DNA of 64,000 bases from Minisyncoccota bacterium (GTDB lineage: Bacteria; Patescibacteriota; Minisyncoccia; Phycocordibacterales; Phycocordibacteraceae): NCBI GenBank assembly GCA_041666305.1, contig JBAYHD010000002.1, positions 64,684-128,683 of the forward strand, in the 5' to 3' direction. The translations under genes and the position numbers were made by a program. The number at the start of each line of letters is the position of its first letter. The first letter of the stretch is position 1. This document shows, piece by piece, positions 9,820 to 63,468 of the stretch. The notes beneath the pieces are model-generated. The model searched no databases and was not told the origin of the DNA. It worked only from the letters and a program-made list of their open reading frames with translations.

Positions 9820-10440
9820 ATGGATCACATTGACGAACTTGCGACGGCACTTGCTCGACTCCCCGGCATTGGGCCGCGGCAGGCGAAACGCTTTGTTTAT
9901 TTCCTCCTCGCCACACCTGCTAGCGAGCGCACCAAACTAGCGGAGCTTATCGCGTCTCTCGGCAAAGAAGTGCGCCAATGCCCCGACTGTATGCGTTTTT
10001 ATAATGGCAGTACGGCAACGATATGCGGCTACTGTTCCGATACGAAGCGTGATGATGCGTTATTGATGCTGGTGGAAAAAGACCAGGACCTTGCGGCGGT
10101 AGAACGCGCGGGTACCTACAAAGGTCGATACTTCGTACTCGGCGGCGTGCTGATGCTTTCCGGCAAAGGCGCCATCCGAGAAAAAGAATTAGTGCACACC
10201 ATTGAAAAGCGCCTTTCTGATGGACACTCCGTGTCCATCAAATTGCGCGAGGTGGTTTTGGCACTCTCCGCAACGAGTGAGGGCGAACACACGGCAGACC
10301 GCGTGCGCGAACTTCTCGCACCCTTTCGCGACCTTTTGAAGACCTCAGAACTCGGCCGCGGCCTTGCGACCGGAAGCGAGCTCGAATATTCCGACGCCGA
10401 AACGCTCCGCGCCGCGCTCACCAACCGCAAAGAGGCATAG
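9820..10440 (+). CDS. recR: recombination protein RecR
   Basis: C4 zinc finger 'CPDCMRF...CGYC', Toprim domain. Confidence 0.9.
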   Translation: MDHIDELATALARLPGIGPRQAKRFVYFLLATPASERTKLAELIASLGKEVRQCPDCMRFYNGSTATICGYCSDTKRDDALLMLVEKDQDLAAVERAGTYKGRYFVLGGVLMLSGKGAIREKELVHTIEKRLSDGHSVSIKLREVVLALSATSEGEHTADRVRELLAPFRDLLKTSELGRGLATGSELEYSDAETLRAALTNRKEA

Positions 10441-10502: not shown

Positions 10503-11087
10503 TCAGATGCTTCTGACAACTTCGAGAATGTCGTTCCATGAATGCACCCTGTGCATGTTTTGCTGACAGAGCACACTATTGTAATTCCATGGAGCATCAA
10601 AGAGCAGGGCCTTACTCACAACCGGCGCGACATTTTCGACATAATGAATAGCATCGTCGACAAACACTTGCACGCCGAGATGGTGACACAGTTGCCTTTT
10701 CGTCATGCTCCCATCTCGATGAGCATCACTTCGCGCAAAACAGATAGAGTCCACAAGCGATGGAAAGTATTTCATAAGGCATGCCCGTGTCTGAGGTTTC
10801 GTGTTACTTGGCCGAGAGGTGATCACAACAACCTCTGCCCTGCTTTGAAGCTCGCGAACTGCCTCAACGGCACCGAGAATAGGAGCAAGCATCTCGTGCT
10901 CGGGCGAAACAAAGAATTCATCAATTCTCTTCGTCATCTCCCTACGGGAACAACTCCATAACATATCAAGACTGTAGGTGTGGACATCATCTCTCGTAAG
11001 TGCCGTGCCATACCGACGGTTATGGAATAGCTGCACCGCGGATTGACAATCCACGAGTACGTCGTCAAAATCAAGGCCAATAATCAT
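10503..11087 (-). CDS. HAD-superfamily 5'(3')-deoxyribonucleotidase-like protein
   Basis: 'IGLDFDDVLVD' DxDxV HAD motif I at the N-terminus; the ORF-track N-terminal extension (to 11204) runs through the REP palindrome and is probably not translated. Confidence 0.55.
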   Translation of the reverse strand: MIIGLDFDDVLVDCQSAVQLFHNRRYGTALTRDDVHTYSLDMLWSCSRREMTKRIDEFFVSPEHEMLAPILGAVEAVRELQSRAEVVVITSRPSNTKPQTRACLMKYFPSLVDSICFARSDAHRDGSMTKRQLCHHLGVQVFVDDAIHYVENVAPVVSKALLFDAPWNYNSVLCQQNMHRVHSWNDILEVVRSI

Positions 11088-11149
11088 GTCAATCCTCCTG
11101 GTGGGTTCAAGTCTGCCGCGACTATACCACGGGTGATTATTCACTCCCA

Positions 11150-11174
11150 ATGAAAGGTTTACGAAACCTTTCAT
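11150..11174. repeat. REP copy 1, 25-bp palindrome atgaaaggtttacgaaacctttcat (inverted orientation)
   Basis: near-perfect palindrome; the asymmetric centre (tacg vs cgta) defines orientation. Confidence 0.85.
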
Positions 11175-11183
11175 GTATACTGG

Positions 11184-11879
11184 TTGTTGATGGAACTCTG
11201 GCACGTTCTTAATCGGGGTGTTGAGGGACGCAATCTATTTCTCGATACGCAGGATTACGCTCGCTTTGTACACGATCTCTATGAATTCAACGACACCGCA
11301 TTGGCTACCAATCGCTGGCGTTCCTTTGACCTGTCAGGAATGAAAGGTTTCGTAAACCTTTCATTCCGAGAAACGCGGAACTTGCTGGTGGATGTTCATG
11401 GGTGGGTGTTGATGAAGAATCACTACCATTTGCTGTTATCAGAACGAGTCGAAGGTGGTATTAGTCTCTTTCTACGCAAGCTGAACGTAGGGTATGCCAA
11501 CTACTTCAATCAAAGATACGGACGGAAAGGAACCCTCTTCCAGGGCCGGACGAAGAAGATTTTGATTAATCGTCAGGCGCACTTTCTGTATATCCTTCAC
11601 TATATTCATCTCAACCCGCTTGATTATCTACCGGGTGCCGATGATTGGCGCATACGGAGTAAAAGCGTCATTAAGAATGCGGGTGAAGCATTCAATTTTC
11701 TTGACTCGTACCGCTGGAGCAGTTATTTAGACTATATCGGGCAAAAGAACTTCCCTTCTATTCTCAAAACTTCCCTCTTCAAAGGATCTCTCGGCGATTA
11801 TCGGGAATCGCTTCATGAGTATCTTAACGACGCCGAACAAGACAGCGATAGTAGTATGGAACAGTCGATTTTGGAATGA
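11184..11879 (+). CDS. REP-associated tyrosine transposase (RAYT, IS200/IS605 Y1 HUH family)
   Basis: 'HVLNRG..GRNLF' N-terminal strand, HUH motif 'NHYHLLL', 'GYANYFNQRYGRKGTLFQGR' catalytic-Tyr helix region, RAYT hallmark 'YRWSSY'. Confidence 0.8.
   Translation: MLMELWHVLNRGVEGRNLFLDTQDYARFVHDLYEFNDTALATNRWRSFDLSGMKGFVNLSFRETRNLLVDVHGWVLMKNHYHLLLSERVEGGISLFLRKLNVGYANYFNQRYGRKGTLFQGRTKKILINRQAHFLYILHYIHLNPLDYLPGADDWRIRSKSVIKNAGEAFNFLDSYRWSSYLDYIGQKNFPSILKTSLFKGSLGDYRESLHEYLNDAEQDSDSSMEQSILE
11340..11364. repeat. REP copy 2 (forward orientation), in-frame inside the RAYT ORF
   Basis: atgaaaggtttcgtaaacctttcat, extended to the 31-bp palindrome ggaatgaaagg...cctttcattcc. Confidence 0.85.
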
Positions 11880-11900
11880 AAGGTTTCGTAAACCTTTCAT
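11876..11900. repeat. REP copy 3 (forward orientation), overlapping the RAYT stop codon
   Basis: atgaaaggtttcgtaaacctttcat; the RAYT TGA stop is the tga of the repeat. Confidence 0.85.
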
Positions 11901-11918
11901 TTCTAGCGGTCTTGAAGG

Positions 11919-13283
11919 CTATCTGTCCTGAACGAATGTGAGCGCTTTGCCCTTCATCGTGGCACGGCCAGTACGGCCGATGCGATGCACATAGTCCTCA
12001 TACGTGGACGGCAAGTCGTAATTGATGACGTGCGAGACGGCGGGAATGTCGATACCGCGGGCGGCGACGTCAGTCGCTACGAGCACGCTCACCTTCCCCG
12101 CTTTGAAGGCCTCCAGGGCGCGCTGACGCGCACCCTGCGTCTTATTGCCGTGAATGCTCTCGGCGTGGATGTGCAGGCGCGAGAGCGCCTTGGCGAGCTT
12201 CTCAACACCGAATTTTGTGCGACCGAACACCAATACGCGGCTGAACTCGCGGTCTTTGAGCATCTCTGCAAGCACGTCAAACTTGTCTTTCCCGCGCGGA
12301 ATGCGAACGACGTCTTGGTCAACGCTTGATGGCGTGTCGCGCGTCTTCACCGATATGATGACCGGACTCGTAAGGAAGTCGCCGATAAGCTTCTCAATAT
12401 CCTTCCCCATCGTTGCAGAGAAGAAAAGGGTGTGACGCTCCTTACGCATCTTCCCGAGGATGGTGCGCATATCGTCAATGAATCCCATGTCGAGCATGCG
12501 ATCCGCCTCGTCGAGGACGACCGTGCCGAAGCCGGAGAGGTTGAGCGCCTTGCGCTCAAGAAGATCTTTCAGGCGGCCGGGGGTGCCAATAACGAATGCC
12601 GGGTCGTGTTTGAGCTGGGAGATTTGCGGGCCGATGTTGGCACCGCCTACCGCGACCATGCCGCGAAAACCGAGCCCCTTCGCCATGCCGGCAAGCTCCT
12701 TTTCTATTTGCACAGCGAGTTCCCGGGTGGGCGCCATGATGAGAACACGCTCGCCTTTTTGCTTCACAACTTTGTCGATAAGCGGGATGAGGAATGCTGC
12801 GGTCTTCCCCGTGCCGGTCTCAGCAAGTCCGACGACGTCCTGACCCAAAAGCGCATGCGGAATAGCCTTGTCCTGAATAGGCGTCGGATTCTCATATTTG
12901 CGCGCGAGAATATTCGCTTTCAAATGCGCGTTGATATCGAAATCGGCGAATTTGTGCTCCGGAACGAATACCGGCTCTTCGGTCGTGACGACCGTCTTGT
13001 TCATAAATTTCGATATCTCGGCTTCGGTCTCGCCGAAGGTCCCGAACCCGCCACGGCGTGCGCCGCCAGAGCGCCCGCGATTGCCTCCGAAGCTCGGTCG
13101 GCCGCCATAACTGCCACTGCCACCACGGGACGGATACCGCGAGGCTCCCCCGCTGCGCGGCGACCTGCCCCGTGAGAAGCCGTCTGCGGCTTTCTCATGA
13201 GGATACGGACGGCTTGAACTGCCGCTTCTTGGCGCTCCTGAGGAGCTACCTCCTGACTGATGATTCCATCTTCCTATTTGCAT
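11919..13283 (-). CDS. DEAD-box ATP-dependent RNA helicase with N-terminal RG/RGG-rich region
   Basis: Q motif, 'AETGTGKT' Walker A, 'VLDEADRML' DEAD box, 'SAT', 'HRIGRTGR' motif VI; first ~80 aa rich in Arg, Gly and Ser. Confidence 0.85.
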   Translation of the reverse strand: MQIGRWNHQSGGSSSGAPRSGSSSRPYPHEKAADGFSRGRSPRSGGASRYPSRGGSGSYGGRPSFGGNRGRSGGARRGGFGTFGETEAEISKFMNKTVVTTEEPVFVPEHKFADFDINAHLKANILARKYENPTPIQDKAIPHALLGQDVVGLAETGTGKTAAFLIPLIDKVVKQKGERVLIMAPTRELAVQIEKELAGMAKGLGFRGMVAVGGANIGPQISQLKHDPAFVIGTPGRLKDLLERKALNLSGFGTVVLDEADRMLDMGFIDDMRTILGKMRKERHTLFFSATMGKDIEKLIGDFLTSPVIISVKTRDTPSSVDQDVVRIPRGKDKFDVLAEMLKDREFSRVLVFGRTKFGVEKLAKALSRLHIHAESIHGNKTQGARQRALEAFKAGKVSVLVATDVAARGIDIPAVSHVINYDLPSTYEDYVHRIGRTGRATMKGKALTFVQDR

Positions 13284-15074: not shown

Positions 15075-15323
15075 GTCTGTAGTATACCCTGTACTAGAGC
15101 AAAGCTTCAGTACGGGGATACCTCCTGCTTCTTTATCCACACATGACATTGCAGATGTGATGCTACAATTCATTCGAAGAGGTAGTCGAGTCCTGTTTTA
15201 AGGTTAACAACACTCCTCTCATCAGCGCCCGGGCACCCGTGTGTCCAGAATCCGATTCTGGACACATTTTCGTTTTTTCGACCCGGCATACATTACAATG
15301 TGCGCGTAACTAGAACGACTATG

Positions 15324-21093: not shown

Positions 21094-23388
21094 CTAGCCC
21101 TTAGCTTGCTTCCTGATCTTGGCCAATACGGCCTTTGATTTCTTGTTTTCAGCGTCTGTCGCTTTCCTCCTCGCCTGTTCCTTGGCCAGCTTTTCTTTCG
21201 CCGTCTTTCTTTGCTTTGCGAGCGCAATTTCTGCCCTGTGTTTTTCAGCGAAAACAGTGCGTTCGATCATCTTCCTTCTCGCGGAGAGCGCGGTCCGCGT
21301 CTGACTGTTCTTTTTTTGCACGGCGTGCTCTTTCGCCCGTTTCTTCCGTAGGGTCGACTGCAATTTTTTCTTTTCTGCTATGACGATTCTCATCCGCTCT
21401 TTTTCACGGCGTATCGTTTCCTCTTCTTTTTTCTTACGAGCTGCGAGAGCAGTCTCAACTTGTTTGGCTTTAGCCCGAATTGCTTTCTCTTTTTCTCGCT
21501 CCTTACGAAGAGCTGTTTGCACTCTCCTTTTCGCATCAGCAACCAGTTTCTTTGCGCGCGTCTTTTCCTTCAGGAGAGCTCTTGCCTTCTTTCGTTTTTC
21601 CGCAGCGAGTGCTTTTTCTGCTTTCTTTTTCTCATTCGCGACGACTTTATCGGCGGCTTTTTTGCTTATCAGTGATGCGCTTGGCGCAGAATGTGCTTCT
21701 TTTTTATTTTCAAAAAATTCCGTCAATCCGCGGATTGCGTCCGCGTGCTTTATGCGTTCAGTTGCCATTACCTCTTCCGCAAGTTTTCGTTCTTCAACAA
21801 CGACCTCTTCCCTTTTTTGTTTTTCTATCTGTAGGGCCTTCGCTTCTTTTCTTTTTTCTTTGGCGAGAGCTGCCTCAGCTTGTCTCTTCAAAAGCCTCAA
21901 TCCTTCTGACTGATCCTTCGCTGAAAGGACCGCGTCGGCAAGACGTTTCTTCTCGGCGATGACTGCCTCGAATTTATTTTTTTCTGCCATGAGCTTTGCT
22001 TGGAAACGCTGCTTCTCACGAGCCAGTGCTGTTTCCGCAGCTTTGGCGCGACGCAATTCATCTTTCAGAGCAGTTTCCGCTTGATCCTTCAAAAGAAAAG
22101 CCTCGTCCGCTTGTTTTTTCTCCGAGAAAGCTTGTTCAGCAAATTGTTCTTTCTTTACGACCGCGCTGGCTGTTTTCGATTTTTCCTCGACTATCTTTGC
22201 GTTAACGCGTTTCTTTTCCCTCACCAGCGCTGCTTCGGCAGTCTCGGCGCGCTTCTTTTCTTCTGCGAGCTCTGCTTCCTTTATTTTTTCTTCGGCGAGC
22301 ACGGCGTCTGTGCGTTTCTTTTCCTTCGCGAGCGCCGCCTCAACCTCGCTCTTTAGGCGAAGCGCTTCCTCGGTTTGTTTCTTTGCCACGAGCACCTCCT
22401 CCGTCGTTTGCTTTTGTGCCGCTGTGGCCACGTCCGCCTCAGCGTATTGCCTCTTGATATCGGAAATAGCAGCTTTGGCCTTACTCTTTTCTTCAGCCAG
22501 TGCGACTTCCGCGTCCTCTGCACGCTTTTTTGTGTCCACAAGCGCTGCTTCGGCCTCGCTTTTCATGCGAAGAGCTTCTTCCGCTTGCTTTTTTGCTGCA
22601 AGGAACTCTTCTTCTGCACTGATTTTTGATGCAACAGTCTCCTCTTGAGATGGCTTCTTTTTAAGGTCGGAAATTATGGATTCAGACCGGTTCTTCTCCT
22701 CGGCCAACGCCGCTTCCGCGGCTTCTACATGCTTTCGTTCTAGAGCGAGTTCGTCCTCCGCTTGCTGTTTTTCCTTTTGGAGCTCGGCTTCCTTCTTTTC
22801 TTCTTCAGCAAGAGCATTTTCCGCTCGTTTCTTTTCCTCTTCAAGCGCCGCTTCTGCTTCGCTTTTCAGACGAAGAACTTCTTCCGCTTGCTTCGCCGCC
22901 GCGGAAACCTCTTCCGTTTGCTGTTTTTCTGTTGTCGCAGCCTCAGTTCCGACGGTTTCTTCCAACGGAACGGGAGTCGGCTCTTCTTTCGTTTCTGCGA
23001 CGGTAGTCGATATATCGATGCCTTTTTCCTCAAAATACGATTTAATCTTTGCGATCACTTCCTCGAACGGATGATCTGCTTTTACAAAATAATCCTTGGC
23101 ACCAAGCGACAACGCTGTCTTAATATCCTCGTCGCCTTGAAGATTCGACGTCACAAAAACGGGTATGTCCTGCAATGTCGGGCTTTCCTTCATTGCCTTC
23201 AACACGCCGAAGCCGTCCAGACGGGGCATCACGAGGTCCAATATCACCAGATCGATCTCGTGTTGCCGCAGTATGTTCAGCGCCTCCTCGCCGTCACCTG
23301 CCGTGAGAACATCCCACATTTGCGCCTCCAGCTTGCCCTGTTCTATGTGACGCAGGCTTTCATCATCTTCGGCGACGAGTATTCTCAT
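21094..23388 (-). CDS. response-regulator receiver domain fused to a ~640-aa K/E/A-rich repetitive coiled-coil tail (FrzS-like architecture)
   Basis: N-terminal REC ('ILVAEDDESL', 'LVILDLVMP'); remainder is a low-complexity Ala/Glu/Lys heptad-like repeat ('AKKQAEEALRMKSEAEAAL..KKRAEDAE.ALAEEK'). Confidence 0.75.
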   Translation of the reverse strand: MRILVAEDDESLRHIEQGKLEAQMWDVLTAGDGEEALNILRQHEIDLVILDLVMPRLDGFGVLKAMKESPTLQDIPVFVTSNLQGDEDIKTALSLGAKDYFVKADHPFEEVIAKIKSYFEEKGIDISTTVAETKEEPTPVPLEETVGTEAATTEKQQTEEVSAAAKQAEEVLRLKSEAEAALEEEKKRAENALAEEEKKEAELQKEKQQAEDELALERKHVEAAEAALAEEKNRSESIISDLKKKPSQEETVASKISAEEEFLAAKKQAEEALRMKSEAEAALVDTKKRAEDAEVALAEEKSKAKAAISDIKRQYAEADVATAAQKQTTEEVLVAKKQTEEALRLKSEVEAALAKEKKRTDAVLAEEKIKEAELAEEKKRAETAEAALVREKKRVNAKIVEEKSKTASAVVKKEQFAEQAFSEKKQADEAFLLKDQAETALKDELRRAKAAETALAREKQRFQAKLMAEKNKFEAVIAEKKRLADAVLSAKDQSEGLRLLKRQAEAALAKEKRKEAKALQIEKQKREEVVVEERKLAEEVMATERIKHADAIRGLTEFFENKKEAHSAPSASLISKKAADKVVANEKKKAEKALAAEKRKKARALLKEKTRAKKLVADAKRRVQTALRKEREKEKAIRAKAKQVETALAARKKKEEETIRREKERMRIVIAEKKKLQSTLRKKRAKEHAVQKKNSQTRTALSARRKMIERTVFAEKHRAEIALAKQRKTAKEKLAKEQARRKATDAENKKSKAVLAKIRKQAKG

Positions 23389-37045: not shown

Positions 37046-37519
37046 CTATGCTACTTTCTCGATAGTATAGGTCTGCTTCCCTGCCGGAGTTTCGAACGTA
37101 AAGACGTCGCCCTTCTTCTTTCCCATGAGCGCGGCACCGAGCGGAGACACGTGTGAGAGCTTTTTAATGCGCATATCGGCTTCCTCGCTTCCGACGATGG
37201 TGTATTCGTGCACTTCGTCGCTGCCGTCTCTTTTTATGGACACTTTTGAATTGAATCCGACTTCGCTCTTCTTCTTGCCGTCGGTGTGTATCTTCGTGTA
37301 CTTCACGAGTTCCTCGAGTTTCTTGATGCGCTCTTCAGTGGCCGCCTGCAGATCGCGCGCTTCTTGGTACTCGGCATTTTCCGAGAGGTCGCCGAGCGAA
37401 CGAGCGTACTCGAGATTCTTGGCAATCTCGGTTCGACGCACGGTCTTCAAATTTTCAAGCTCTTTTATCATTTCATCGAACTTCTCCTGCGAGACGACGA
37501 TATCTTGTGCATCAATCAT
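37046..37519 (-). CDS. greA: transcription elongation factor GreA
   Basis: N-terminal coiled coil with 'LGDLSENAEY', C-terminal FKBP-like domain; conserved greA-lysS linkage. Confidence 0.85.
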   Translation of the reverse strand: MIDAQDIVVSQEKFDEMIKELENLKTVRRTEIAKNLEYARSLGDLSENAEYQEARDLQAATEERIKKLEELVKYTKIHTDGKKKSEVGFNSKVSIKRDGSDEVHEYTIVGSEEADMRIKKLSHVSPLGAALMGKKKGDVFTFETPAGKQTYTIEKVA

Positions 37520-37772
37520 GGTAGTGCGCGCATTGTACTTGCCCCGTACCAACTTGCAAGTTTTTGGACGAACCTCCACCTGCAAATATCCTTATCTGCA
37601 TCCGGTCGGAAATAATAAGAACATTTGGGAAAGTTGGTTCTGGTGCTTGAGTCGCGCCAGAGCGCAACTACTACCAAGCGAGCCGAGTAACGAGTGTATT
37701 CTTATACATTCGTTCGAGGCAAGCGTAGGGAGGAAGCTTTGTCCTCAAAGCTTATTGCGCAAGCGCAAATTT

Positions 37773-37820
37773 GGCGGAGAGACAAAAACCTCCATATATG
37801 GAGGTTTTTGTCTCTCCGCC
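37773..37820. terminator. 48-bp perfect palindrome (24-bp stem) immediately downstream of mrdA
   Basis: ggcggagagacaaaaacctccata|tatggaggtttttgtctctccgcc, exact reverse complement halves. Confidence 0.5.
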
Positions 37821-37823
37821 AAG

Positions 37824-39509
37824 TTAATTTGTGATTGTGGCGGTGCCTCCGATGTACGGGGAATTCGCGATATACAACGAATCAAAAAAATCCCGCATGA
37901 CGTTCACCGCCTGCTCGCCGGCGCCCTCCGGTCCCCTCTCAAGCACGACTGCAAACGCATACCGCGGATGCTCGTACGGAAAGAATCCGACGACCCATGA
38001 ATTGTCATATTGATTGCGCGTGCCCGTCTGCGCGGTGCCGGTTTTCGCGGCAACGTTTATATACGGCAGATTAATGGCGCTTGCGAGAGCGCCCGTGACG
38101 CTCTGCCGCATACCGGAGCGCACCACGGCGAGCGCGCTCGGATTTGCAGGAACAAGCGTAAAACTGGAAGTTTGGTTCGCAAGCAAAGTCGGCGTAAGTA
38201 ATTTTCCGCCATTCGCCACTGCCGCGATGGCACACACCATCTGTATTGGCGTCACCTGCACTGAGTATTGTCCTATTGCGGTGAAATACGTGTCGCCGAG
38301 ATACCACGGTTCATTAAAAGTCTCTTTCTTCCATGCTGGCGTCGGGATGAGGCCGCTCGCCTCTCCGGAAAGAGTAATACCGGTCGGACTGCCGAGTCCG
38401 AACTGTCGATACCAATACTCAAGTCGGTCAATGCCGAGCCCCTTTTGGCTTTTGAACCCGCCGCCGACCGTATAGAAAAAGATGTCGGACGACCATGCGA
38501 TGGCTTTCTTCACATCCACCGGGCCGAGCGCACGCCACCCTTTATAAATAAATTCCTTGCCGGGATGATACGGGTCCGGAATGGAGATAAAACCGAGATC
38601 ATCGATGATGGTGTCTGGCGTGATGATGCCGTCAGTGAGTGCCCCAGAGGCTACGAGCGGCTTCACAATGGAGCCCGGTGCATAGACTCCTTGAATAGCG
38701 TGATCAAGGAATGGGCGCCCCGGATTCGCATTATACGCATCAATGATGCTCGCCGGCCCGCCGTTGCTCATCACGTTCGGATCGTAGCTCGGATAGGATG
38801 AAATGGCGCGCACAGCCCCGGAATCGACATCCAAAATAACGCCGGCCCCGGCGATAAAGCGATGGTCGCTCGCCACATTTGCGATGGCGCGCGAAAATAG
38901 TTCTTGCAGATTCGCGTCAATGGATAATTGAAGCGTGCTGCCGCTCTCCGCAGGCACGACGAGCCCTTCGGAACGAACTCTGCCAAGCGCATCGGTTTCG
39001 GTCAAAAGCTGTCCGTTTGTACCCGTGAGAAGCGTGTCGTACTCGGCTTCAAGGCCGCTGACGCCGGTCTCACTGGTGTCGTAATAGATACCGTTACTAT
39101 CTTTTTTCGGATATGAAACGTATCCGATGATCTGGCTCAAAGACGGGAGCGGGTAATTGCGCAAAATGCTTCCGTCTTCTTTCTCGGCGTTCTCTGCAAC
39201 CACGACACCATTGATATCCGTAATAATGCCGCGCAGTGCAAAGAGCGTTCTCACTTCAAGACTGTTATGCGCACTCTCCGCGGCATACTCGGAACCGTTC
39301 GCGACCTGCAGATCCCATGAGCGAGAAATGAGCACAACGAACAGCAGGCCGAGCATCGCGGCAAGATACAAAAACGTTCCGTGCGAAAGAGGTTTTTCGA
39401 GCCGGCCCTCAAAACGCGCGCGGTCGAACGCCGGGGCGTTGCTAGCATCAAGAAATATTTCATCGGGAGCTATTTCCGGATCCTGCCGTCTTGCGCGCTT
39501 CCAGTTCAT
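37824..39509 (-). CDS. mrdA: penicillin-binding protein 2 (elongasome transpeptidase)
   Basis: 'SIVKP' SxxK motif, 'KTGTAQ'; follows mreBCD. Confidence 0.8.
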   Translation of the reverse strand: MNWKRARRQDPEIAPDEIFLDASNAPAFDRARFEGRLEKPLSHGTFLYLAAMLGLLFVVLISRSWDLQVANGSEYAAESAHNSLEVRTLFALRGIITDINGVVVAENAEKEDGSILRNYPLPSLSQIIGYVSYPKKDSNGIYYDTSETGVSGLEAEYDTLLTGTNGQLLTETDALGRVRSEGLVVPAESGSTLQLSIDANLQELFSRAIANVASDHRFIAGAGVILDVDSGAVRAISSYPSYDPNVMSNGGPASIIDAYNANPGRPFLDHAIQGVYAPGSIVKPLVASGALTDGIITPDTIIDDLGFISIPDPYHPGKEFIYKGWRALGPVDVKKAIAWSSDIFFYTVGGGFKSQKGLGIDRLEYWYRQFGLGSPTGITLSGEASGLIPTPAWKKETFNEPWYLGDTYFTAIGQYSVQVTPIQMVCAIAAVANGGKLLTPTLLANQTSSFTLVPANPSALAVVRSGMRQSVTGALASAINLPYINVAAKTGTAQTGTRNQYDNSWVVGFFPYEHPRYAFAVVLERGPEGAGEQAVNVMRDFFDSLYIANSPYIGGTATITN

Positions 39510-46007: not shown

Positions 46008-46685
46008 CTATACCAAACCTTTCGGAATGACGAGCGATAGGTGTTCCAGGATCATGCGCACGGGCGCGCTACGGTCGTAGAGATGTCCACGCAGAACTTG
46101 AATATCTCGTAACAATTCCGCAATGTGGGACTTCGTAAGTCCCACATTGCGATAAGCTGCTGCTTCGATACCATTCACGATACTGATCGCTTCGTCACGC
46201 AATTCCCGCCGTTCTTCCTCGTCCTTCCCGCTCGTGAGTTTCTTTATCATCGCACTCCGCTTCTCCTTACTCGCCTTCATAAACTCCTCCGCCGCTTCAG
46301 AAATTAAGGGTTTACGAAATCCATAATTCGTATCAAGGATTTGGACGCGGGAGCGGAGGGTTGGAAGAAGACCGCCGAGAGATGGCAGTATGAAAAACAG
46401 ATACGTCCCAGCAGGCGGTTCTTCAAAAAGTTTTAAGAGCGCATTCTGTGCTTCGTGATACGCACGAATCGCCGCGATGATGACGACCTTTGTTGTGCCG
46501 GCAAATGCAGCGCCCGCGGCGAGCTCAGACACTCGTCGCGCATCCTCGACCGAGAACAGACCATACCGCATCACGGCAACATCGGGATTGCCCTGTATCT
46601 TCATCTGCAACTCCTTCTCCACCCAAGCCTGCGCGGCCATAACACCCTCCTCGGCCTCCGCCTCTATCACAAACGCATGGTGCAT
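46008..46685 (-). CDS. holB: DNA polymerase III delta'-like subunit (short, degenerate P-loop)
   Basis: 'NALLKLFEEPP' clamp-loader box, 'LPTLRSRVQIL' sensor-2-like motif. Confidence 0.6.
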   Translation of the reverse strand: MHHAFVIEAEAEEGVMAAQAWVEKELQMKIQGNPDVAVMRYGLFSVEDARRVSELAAGAAFAGTTKVVIIAAIRAYHEAQNALLKLFEEPPAGTYLFFILPSLGGLLPTLRSRVQILDTNYGFRKPLISEAAEEFMKASKEKRSAMIKKLTSGKDEEERRELRDEAISIVNGIEAAAYRNVGLTKSHIAELLRDIQVLRGHLYDRSAPVRMILEHLSLVIPKGLV

Positions 46686-52169: not shown

Positions 52170-52199
52170 GCTTTTAGGATAGCATTCTTTGCTCCGCGG

Positions 52200-52373
52200 G
52201 TAAGCGTTTCTTGCACGCTTTCCCGCGTTCGCCTCGCTCGAAAACAGAAGCCGTGGGTGCCCCGCTTGTAAGCGTTGCTTGCACGCTTTCCCGCGTTCGC
52301 CTCGCTCGAAAACAGAAGCCGTGGGTGCCCCGCTTGTAAGCGTTGCTTGCACGCTTTCCCGCGTTCGCCTCGG
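52200..52373. repeat. 68-bp tandem direct repeat, 2.6 copies (1 mismatch)
   Basis: unit gtaagcgttgcttgcacgctttcccgcgttcgcctcgctcgaaaacagaagccgtgggtgccccgctt. Confidence 0.9.
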
Positions 52374-52380
52374 ATAAAAA

Positions 52381-52411
52381 GAAACCGCCCTCAGAAGGGC
52401 GTTTCTTTTTG
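52381..52411. terminator. bidirectional rho-independent terminator downstream of tRNA-Asn
   Basis: gaaaccgccct-caga-agggcgtttc flanked by A-run and T-run. Confidence 0.7.
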
Positions 52412-63416: not shown

Positions 63417-63429
63417 TTCCGAAAAACCC

Positions 63430-63468
63430 GCTAGGTGACACCTTTCCGAAAGGTGTCACCTAGCGGTA
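63430..63468. terminator. 17-bp-stem hairpin between convergent genes
   Basis: cgctaggtgacaccttt-ccgaa-aggtgtcacctagcg. Confidence 0.7.

Follow-up and report, generated by a model that had tools for sequence, protein, structure and literature searches.

The 64-kb stretch of DNA analysed here (the window) comes from a member of Candidatus Paceibacterota, in the candidate phyla radiation (CPR). It probably contains the home locus of an HUH-Y1 nuclease/transposase of the RAYT kind that has been domesticated and is present in a single copy, together with three cognate 25-nt hairpins. The gene, which we call the Y1 gene (11190-11879, + strand; 229 aa, with an alternative TTG start at 11184), has one hairpin directly upstream, one in frame within its coding sequence (CDS) and one over its stop codon. 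This layout is found in every relative examined, and also in a second clade whose hairpin is unrelated in sequence. An earlier note on this DNA had described the gene and two flanking palindromes as a REPtron, i.e. a RAYT/TnpAREP gene flanked by repetitive extragenic palindromes (REPs), an arrangement reviewed in PMC6006769. A RAYT-like gene flanked by its own hairpin is indeed present, but the locus has neither a GT[AG]G foot nor a conserved inverted pair. The distinctive features of the locus are those that the note had overlooked, namely the copy translated in frame inside the gene, the three fixed sites and the presence of related hairpins in housekeeping genes.

The open reading frame (ORF; 11184/11190-11879) contains the NHYHLLL and WSSY sequences first read in it. 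The HUH motif (H78-Y79-H80, in NHYH) is encoded at 11421-11429 (+), and the Y motif, YIHLNP, at 11601-11618 (+); the catalytic tyrosine, Y138 (11601-11603), was assigned via the family motifs in PMC6006769. The segment GYANYFNQRYGRKGTLFQGR, previously taken for the catalytic tyrosine region, holds instead the FQ motif (LFQGR), and the Y motif is located further downstream. The SS motif reads RWSSY. H78, H80 and Y138 are invariant among 69 sequences. A fold search was needed because a sequence search of the PDB with a narrow profile returned nothing relevant. The AlphaFold (AF2) model, computed from 69 homologues, has a predicted local distance difference test score (pLDDT) of 74.5. In Foldseek, its top PDB match is the E. 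coli RAYT in complex with a REP hairpin (4er8_A, E 1.3e-5), and the next matches are the ISDra2, IS608 and IS200 TnpA structures. The NCBI name of the product is 'MAG: transposase [Candidatus Paceibacterota bacterium]' (MFA6519473.1; MAG, metagenome-assembled genome), and relatives of the second clade carry precomputed PF01797 hits. The modelled fold and the motifs, which are those of REP-associated Y1 enzymes, support the assignment of the protein as RAYT/TnpAREP-like.

The 25-mer consists of a perfect 11-bp stem and a 3-nt loop, with ATG/CAT as the foot and CGT or ACG as the loop. The upstream copy is an exact 25-mer at 11150-11174 (ATGAAAGGTTT-ACG-AAACCTTTCAT; no strand assigned, loop ACG on the + strand). 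The internal hairpin spans 11337-11367 (+), with the exact 25-mer at 11340-11364, a CGT loop and a stem lengthened to 14 bp. The downstream hairpin has a 12-bp stem and spans 11875-11901 (+), with the exact 25-mer ATGAAAGGTTT-CGT-AAACCTTTCAT at 11876-11900. The two outer copies are present as first reported. The accompanying claim that they are the only ones in the window does not hold, as the internal copy is a third exact one and related hairpins occur at 46119-46151 and 46302-46328. As single-stranded DNA, the upstream, internal and downstream copies have predicted folding energies of -9.4, -13.9 and -10.4 kcal/mol, all far better than those of shuffled controls (z = -7.4 for the upstream copy).

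The upstream copy sits where a -35 region would be and ends 1 nt 5' of TATACT (11176-11181, +), a -10-like box read from the sequence and situated 8 nt 5' of the ATG. A consensus promoter scan left this box uncalled, for want of a -35 match, and there is no Shine-Dalgarno sequence. The arrangement suggests that the transcript of the Y1 gene may be leaderless or nearly so, with the hairpin in place of the -35 region. The internal copy is translated in frame as G-MKGFVNLS-FR (residues 50-60, of which MKGFVNLS makes up residues 51-58). In the AF2 model, these residues fall between helix 1 and strand 2, in a low-confidence loop (pLDDT <50 at 39-48 and 50-58). The TGA stop (11877-11879) lies within the 5' arm of the downstream copy, as had been noticed, and this copy is placed between the Y1 gene and a convergent DEAD-box helicase gene whose end is at 11919. 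The ATG/CAT foot supplies an ATG on both strands, and at 11150-11174 it overlaps an ORF on the - strand (10503-11204). One gene call begins the neighbouring NT5C gene at the ATG of the hairpin (MKGFVNLS...), whereas a Pfam match and an AGGAGG site favour the ATG at 11088.

The possibility that the 25-mer is a chance palindrome, or a generic terminator common to unrelated genes, is negligible. The window does contain many strong hairpins, several of them terminator-like. However, three exact 25-mers were observed against no match in shuffles of the window that preserve dinucleotides, no T-run is found 3' of any copy, the terminator scan calls none of them, and the same three places are occupied in all relatives. 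In Rfam there is no family for the hairpins, the sole match being a chance miRNA (22 bits versus a cut-off of 75). This explanation is thus refuted by the shuffles, the terminator scan and the conserved placement.

More than 4500 homologues of the Y1 protein were found. Among the matches listed, which come from Kaiserbacteria, Paceibacterota and other CPR lineages, identities are 65-88% and lengths mostly ~226 aa; a search of viral contigs for relatives of the gene gave no matches. We compared the DNA of 11 distinct loci of close homologues, with 33 aligned hairpins. All three hairpins are present at the same places in 11/11 loci. The centre of the upstream hairpin is 26-32 nt 5' of the ATG in all 11 loci, that of the internal hairpin is at CDS position +162 in ten loci and +153 in the remaining one (L143), and that of the downstream hairpin is at stop+9 in eight, with +13 or +19 in the other three. 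In both clades, a TATA(A/C)T-like box is found directly 3' of the upstream hairpin, 4-9 nt 5' of the ATG, and a Shine-Dalgarno sequence is lacking. The window contains no further copies at up to five mismatches, and neither do the ±10 kb flanks examined in six other genomes; the REP dispersal proposed in the earlier note was thus not observed for the 25-mer itself.

Between genomes, the ATG/CAT foot, the T.A closing pairs and the CGT/ACG loop are constant, and the stems vary. The latter are ATGATGGACCT / AGGTCCATCAT in L125, ATGAGCGGTTT / AAACCGCTCAT in L142 and ATATGGGTTT / AAACCCTTAT in L143, and the hairpin of L140 is ATGATGGGTTT-CGG-AAACCCTTCAT. The stems covary: 93% of the cells of the 33 aligned hairpins are paired and double-sided changes affect 7 of the 11 pairs, counts that overstate the number of events, same-genome copies and related genomes not being independent. 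The covariation score was reached by none of 500 shuffles, and the paired fraction falls to 34-58% in slid registers. In addition, the copies within one genome evolve in concert. They are more alike than same-position copies of different genomes, with a within-genome stem identity of 0.905 compared with 0.781 when genome labels are permuted (0/10000 permutations reach 0.905). A similar signal is seen at the peptide level, as the 45 distinct internal 9-mers of 120 homologues allow a mean of 10.16 pairs out of 11, versus 9.74 ± 0.07 when their 3' halves are shuffled. Examples of internal peptides in homologues are MRDFVNPS, MKGLRNLS and MSGLRNRS. The opposite orientation ascribed to the flanking copies is real in the window, where the loops read ACG and CGT, respectively. 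However, it lies only in the loop, whose orientation varies freely among relatives; every combination of loop orientations occurs, and that of the flanks is not conserved. A T.T mismatch is found at stem position 5 in L140, L141 and L143, on the same strand in the flanking copies, and in L143 in all three copies.

These data also bear on a different explanation, in which the palindromes would be double-stranded operators for a symmetric dimer, of the Y1 protein or another protein, in a lac-like multi-operator autoregulation with no extrusion or cutting. Symmetric half-sites that change together would mimic compensatory covariation, the three sites are within 750 bp, and the upstream copy adjoins the -10-like box in every locus. 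In contrast, the solved relatives of the fold bind single-stranded hairpins, asymmetric mismatches recur, and hairpins are found in the middle of the CDS of folD, atpG, trmD, holB and gltX, away from promoters. Furthermore, Pfam reports no helix-turn-helix (HTH) domain in the Y1 protein at E values up to 0.1. We therefore regard operators of this kind as very unlikely.

The second CPR clade, with 46% identity to the Y1 protein, includes Azam-, Wolfe-, Colwell- and Liptonbacteria. Its loci (L144-L148) show the same three-site layout with hairpins of unrelated sequence, of the type (AATC)TTACGAAGT-TGA/TCA-ACTTCGTAA(GATT) or TTACGAGGC-TAA-GCCTCGTAA. The internal copy is at the homologous codon, 19-20 residues past the FEFND motif, and yields the peptide QSYEVELRKIG. 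In more distant relatives (37-50% identity), both the length and the sequence of the loop that corresponds to the internal copy are hypervariable. The internal hairpin may be ancient, with a sequence that changed along with those of the flanking copies; alternatively, hairpins may have landed repeatedly in this loop. As for the C terminus of the protein, all members of the close clade share the ending '..L-E-stop', which is also frequent among distant relatives, although the 10-15 residues that precede it are variable. The idea that the downstream hairpin dictates this ending was rejected, since the second clade keeps LE though its hairpin starts past the stop and has another sequence. One second-clade contig (L146, 3274-5116) carries two tandem Y1 paralogues, each with its own hairpin type at all three sites, in keeping with the one enzyme-one repeat rule known for REPtrons (PMC6006769).

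This correspondence between paralogue and hairpin type, seen at all three sites, speaks for a protein-specific partner. It argues against the view that the hairpins are REP-like relics serving as enzyme-independent RNA elements for mRNA stability or translation. In this view, ribosomes would move more slowly over the internal copy, and the copy at the stop codon would stall the 3' end or shield it. The transcript of the gene does include two of the three copies, and they form strong RNA folds (-18.9 kcal/mol for the internal and -15.8 kcal/mol for the downstream copy, with -11.5 kcal/mol for the upstream one). REP ends that give stop codons and REPs near 3' ends are also known (PMC3733652). 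The upstream copy, however, is located 5' of the -10-like box, probably outside the mRNA, and G.U pairs are not favoured over A.C. Such RNA elements are unlikely to be the explanation of the locus, but they can be compatible with, and additive to, hairpins that are partners of the enzyme.

The Y1 gene looks domesticated, as the earlier note had proposed. The window contains one copy of it, and the order recR-(variable gene)-Y1 gene-DEAD helicase-L21-rmuC is common to L123 and L143, with the recR side alone likewise kept in L125; the Y1 proteins of these three loci show 67-76% identity. These observations have to be weighed against a description of the locus as an autonomous insertion sequence (IS) of the IS200/IS605 type in single copy, a unit of ~750 bp mobile as a whole, whose left and right subterminal ends would be the outer hairpins. 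The hairpin-gene-hairpin unit is ~751 bp long, and the T.T mismatch of L140, L141 and L143 is asymmetric and on the same strand, as in IS ends. The GC content of the Y1 gene is 7-12 percentage points under that of its locus in 9/9 genomes checked (window, L123, L125, L140-L145), with 0.455 versus 0.530 in the window, and the gene is found in other neighbourhoods in L140-L142. In the second clade, there are the tandem paralogues, and contigs L147 and L148 break 1-1.6 kb upstream of the Y1 gene, which suggests repeat-induced assembly breaks or a higher copy number in that clade. Nevertheless, the single copy in the window and the synteny, on the recR side in four genomes of 67-76% protein identity and on the helicase-L21-rmuC side in three of these, do not fit a mobile unit. 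Neither do the REP-type Y motif (YIHLNP) and the length of 229 aa, as compared with Y[IV]ENQ and ~150 aa for IS200 TnpA (PMC6006769), and the conserved third, intragenic hairpin has no role in IS200/IS605 transposition. Thus, although IS608 and ISDra2 share a Y1 HUH enzyme and similar hairpins near both gene ends with the locus, we find it improbable that the latter is such an element.

Outside Y1 loci, the hairpin of the window is rare. A complete scan of 241 million metagenome records for the exact hairpin gave 13 sites only. Four of them correspond to the 3' ends of Y1 homologues, and two differ in the loop. Of the remaining seven, five are in frame, three of them in folD, one in a trmD-like gene and one in atpG; another overlaps the stop codon of tyrS, and the last is flanked by the 3' ends of groEL and of a phosphatase gene. 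The folD and groEL sites were also seen in Saccharibacteria, in a genome-collection scan with an 18-base core (at least 119 loci). For atpG, the MKGLRNLS peptide is present in only 1 of 120 homologues, and in most of those aligned the loop is shorter by 5-7 residues. At the same site, the nearest homologue (L149, 82% identity) has CCCCATGTGGGACAT-ACG-ATGTCCCACATGGGG, with the foot and loop alike and a different stem (type B, as opposed to type A, that of the window 25-mer).

Hairpins with ATGTGGGACTT-type (type B) stems are also found in the source genome, which has three copies and one degenerate copy, in holB and gltX. The holB-like gene of the window (46008-46685, - strand; Pfam DNA_pol3_delta2) contains an in-frame type B hairpin at 46119-46151 (-), CGCAATGTGGGACTT-CGT-AAGTCCCACATTGCG, with a perfect 15-bp stem and the peptide RNVGLTKSHIA. 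It also contains a degenerate related one at 46302-46328 (-), AATTAAGGGTTT-ACG-AAATCCATAATT, in frame (NYGFRKPLI), with 9/11 pairs and resembling the L143-type stem. On the same contig, ~3.7 kb upstream of the window start, gltX harbours an in-frame inverted doublet of type B (L150, 15002-15054), GTGTGGGACTT-ACG-AAGTCCCACAT ctg ATGTGGGACTT-CGT-AAGTCCCACAA, with the peptide VWDLRSPTSDVGLRKSHN. It looks like a REPIN-type doublet within a tRNA synthetase gene. For comparison, the generic scan (11-nt arms, ACG/CGT loop, at least nine pairs) is expected to give ~1 chance match per 291 kb. The source genome thus holds a low-copy hairpin population inside housekeeping genes.

Other hairpins with some resemblance were noticed. 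In recR, an in-frame 10-bp hairpin at 10218-10240, TGATGGACAC-TCC-GTGTCCATCA (peptide SDGHSVSIK), has an outer stem of the L125 type (TGATGGAC..GTCCATCA) and a different loop. Two strong hairpins with CCG loops and T.A closing pairs, TGTGTCCAGAAT-CCG-ATTCTGGACACA at 15240-15266 between divergent genes and another with an 18-bp stem at 63428-63466 between convergent ORFs, could be either ordinary terminators or additional members of the hairpin superfamily. The genome-collection scan was dominated by another, longer REP (AGACCYGAAAGGTTTT..AAAACCTTTCRGGTCT) of Bacteroidota and Anaerolineae. A longer palindrome, AGACC[CT]GAAAGGTTTT..AAAACCTTTC[AG]GGTCT, has the core of the window hairpin (e.g. 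L067 at 5622, 5797 and 6422; L023; L024; L027). Copies of it are scattered over numerous contigs from Bacteroidota, Anaerolineae, Calditrichota and other MAGs, and it flanks distant Y1 homologues (24-29% identity) in classical REPtron fashion. The common core may reflect ascertainment, as it was the search pattern.

The window has further repeats. A perfect 24-bp palindrome with a 4-nt loop, TTGGCGGAGAGACAAAAACCTCCA-TATA-TGGAGG..., is located at 37771-37822 within a long ORF (37125-38000). A 68-nt unit is present three times in tandem at 52190-52393, the second and third copies having 94% and 74% identity to the first. A long coding stretch at 21773-22917 is CTTC/GCTT-rich and contains many imperfect direct repeats of ~26-95 nt; its product, encoded on the - strand, looks like a repetitive coiled-coil-like protein.

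REPtrons of the E. coli yafM type (PDB 4er8; Nunvar 2010; Ton-Hoang 2012) are the reference for the locus. It resembles them in the HUH-Y1 fold, the Y...NP and SS motifs, a gene that appears to be single-copy and stably placed, with its own short hairpin on both sides, and the hairpin type proper to each paralogue, as in the tandem genes of L146. It differs from them in the ATG/CAT foot in place of GT[AG]G, in the flank orientation that is not conserved, in the third copy fixed in frame within the gene, and in that the copies are few and mostly inside CDS, with no high-copy intergenic REP population seen in the 73 kb read. In subclasses 2.6 and 3, atypical REPs that lack GTAG are also accepted (PMC6006769).

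Within the TnpAY1 classification (Quentin et al. 2018; PMC6006769), the motif set of the Y1 protein matches in Table 1 only subclass 2.1 (Bertels group 1), with NH[YF]H / FQ / Y[IV]HLNP and ~238 aa, an assignment by motifs and length. Subclass 2.1 is reported to have no REP-like sequences near the gene, a C-terminal HTH (Bac_DnaA_C, HTH_23 or HTH_28) and flanking terminal inverted repeats (TIRs) with GGGG[AT][CG]A[CG] (PMC6006769). This subclass probably corresponds to the TIRYTs of Di Nocera 2013. In contrast, the Y1 locus has cognate hairpins, no Pfam HTH and no such TIR. In TIRtrons, the TIRYT gene is reportedly flanked by long TIRs, often with GGGGWSAS, whereas the flanks of the Y1 gene hold the 25-nt hairpin only.

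In subclass 2.4, REPs are inserted in frame within the tnpAREP gene (PMC6006769). The internal copy is similar in being the gene's own repeat inside the CDS, in a peripheral loop and with the frame intact, but it is 5' of the HuH motif and at one homologous codon in two clades of 46% identity that have unrelated hairpins. In-frame palindromes are also known from intragenic REPs and Rickettsia palindromic elements in housekeeping genes, often replication genes and those of tRNA synthetases, and their ends can give stop codons (PMC3733652). The hairpins described here, in Patescibacteria, are much shorter (25 nt, 8 codons), and at the orthologous atpG site the stem varies with the foot and loop kept. 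Thus, REPtrons, stop codons from REP ends, REPs translated in housekeeping genes and in-frame REPs in tnpAREP are already known. What differs is the combination of a foot without GTAG, three fixed sites, an internal copy before HuH at one codon in two deep clades, and repeats nearly confined to the gene itself and to CDS. The library that we searched for papers on RAYTs or REPINs in CPR bacteria (Patescibacteria, Paceibacteria) contains none that connects the two or describes this arrangement; a K07491 hit in an archaeon is mentioned in passing in one preprint.

Several observations weigh against the locus being that of a RAYT-kind enzyme with cognate hairpins. The Pfam check suggested in the earlier note gave a match to Y1_Tnp (PF01797), but at 21.3 bits it is under the cut-off of 23, and NCBIfam REP_Tyr_transpos (NF047646) does not reach its cut-off either (34.4 bits versus 80). 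No GTAG or GT[AG]G foot is present next to any of the copies, and the W/Q/R residues that read the GTAG foot in E. coli are replaced by the FQ-type motif. No further type A copy was found in the 73 kb readable of the source genome, including 9 kb further upstream on the same contig at a threshold of at least 9/11 pairs. As their stems differ from that of the window hairpin, the holB and gltX copies may be those of a different Y1 paralogue encoded elsewhere in the genome. Besides the overcounting of events mentioned above, the covariation signal would equally be expected of a symmetric double-stranded binding site such as an operator. Finally, the non-Watson-Crick cells show no bias (10 A.C and 11 G.T); the folding strand or molecule, RNA or DNA, cannot be told, as A.C is about as frequent as G.T.

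Hairpin binding, cutting and rejoining on single-stranded DNA are established for E. coli TnpAREP and IS608. By analogy, we propose that the Y1 protein, as a dimer, would bind its hairpins on single-stranded DNA in the way that TnpAREP binds REPs, and that it would cut and rejoin the DNA beside them. This activity, or local gene conversion, may keep the copies of one genome alike. The same activity might seed, renew or maintain related hairpins in small numbers, most of them within housekeeping genes or at their ends, such as holB and gltX in the source genome and atpG, folD, trmD, tyrS and groEL in other CPR genomes. The hairpins probably also hold down the expression of the Y1 gene itself, given that the upstream copy overlaps the promoter and that the mRNA contains the other two, including the one over the stop codon.

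RAYTs are the textbook case of a domesticated transposase with an unexplained benefit to the host. The locus described here looks like a stripped-down version, in which a highly conserved enzyme is combined with a few hairpins whose positions are fixed, in hosts that have ~1-Mb genomes and almost no intergenic DNA. It gives cognate hairpins to a subclass reported to be devoid of REPs, and the enzyme-hairpin pair has been kept over deep divergence in Patescibacteria (Kaiser-, Wolfe-, Azam-, Colwell- and Liptonbacteria, Paceibacterota). The pair is small and well defined and therefore testable in vitro, and the in-frame copies in holB, gltX, atpG and folD are natural reporters of whether the enzyme maintains the hairpins. 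More tentatively, the locus might represent a self-referential three-hairpin module found across Patescibacteria. The internal hairpin would then be an obligatory cis element, held at one codon, with a sequence that turns over together with those of the flanks, and the enzyme would sustain a small set of hairpins within essential CDS instead of in intergenic DNA. If so, this module would be a REP system adapted to ultra-compact genomes, and it might serve for feedback control of the enzyme or allow single-stranded DNA to be cut in a programmed manner at genes for replication and translation.

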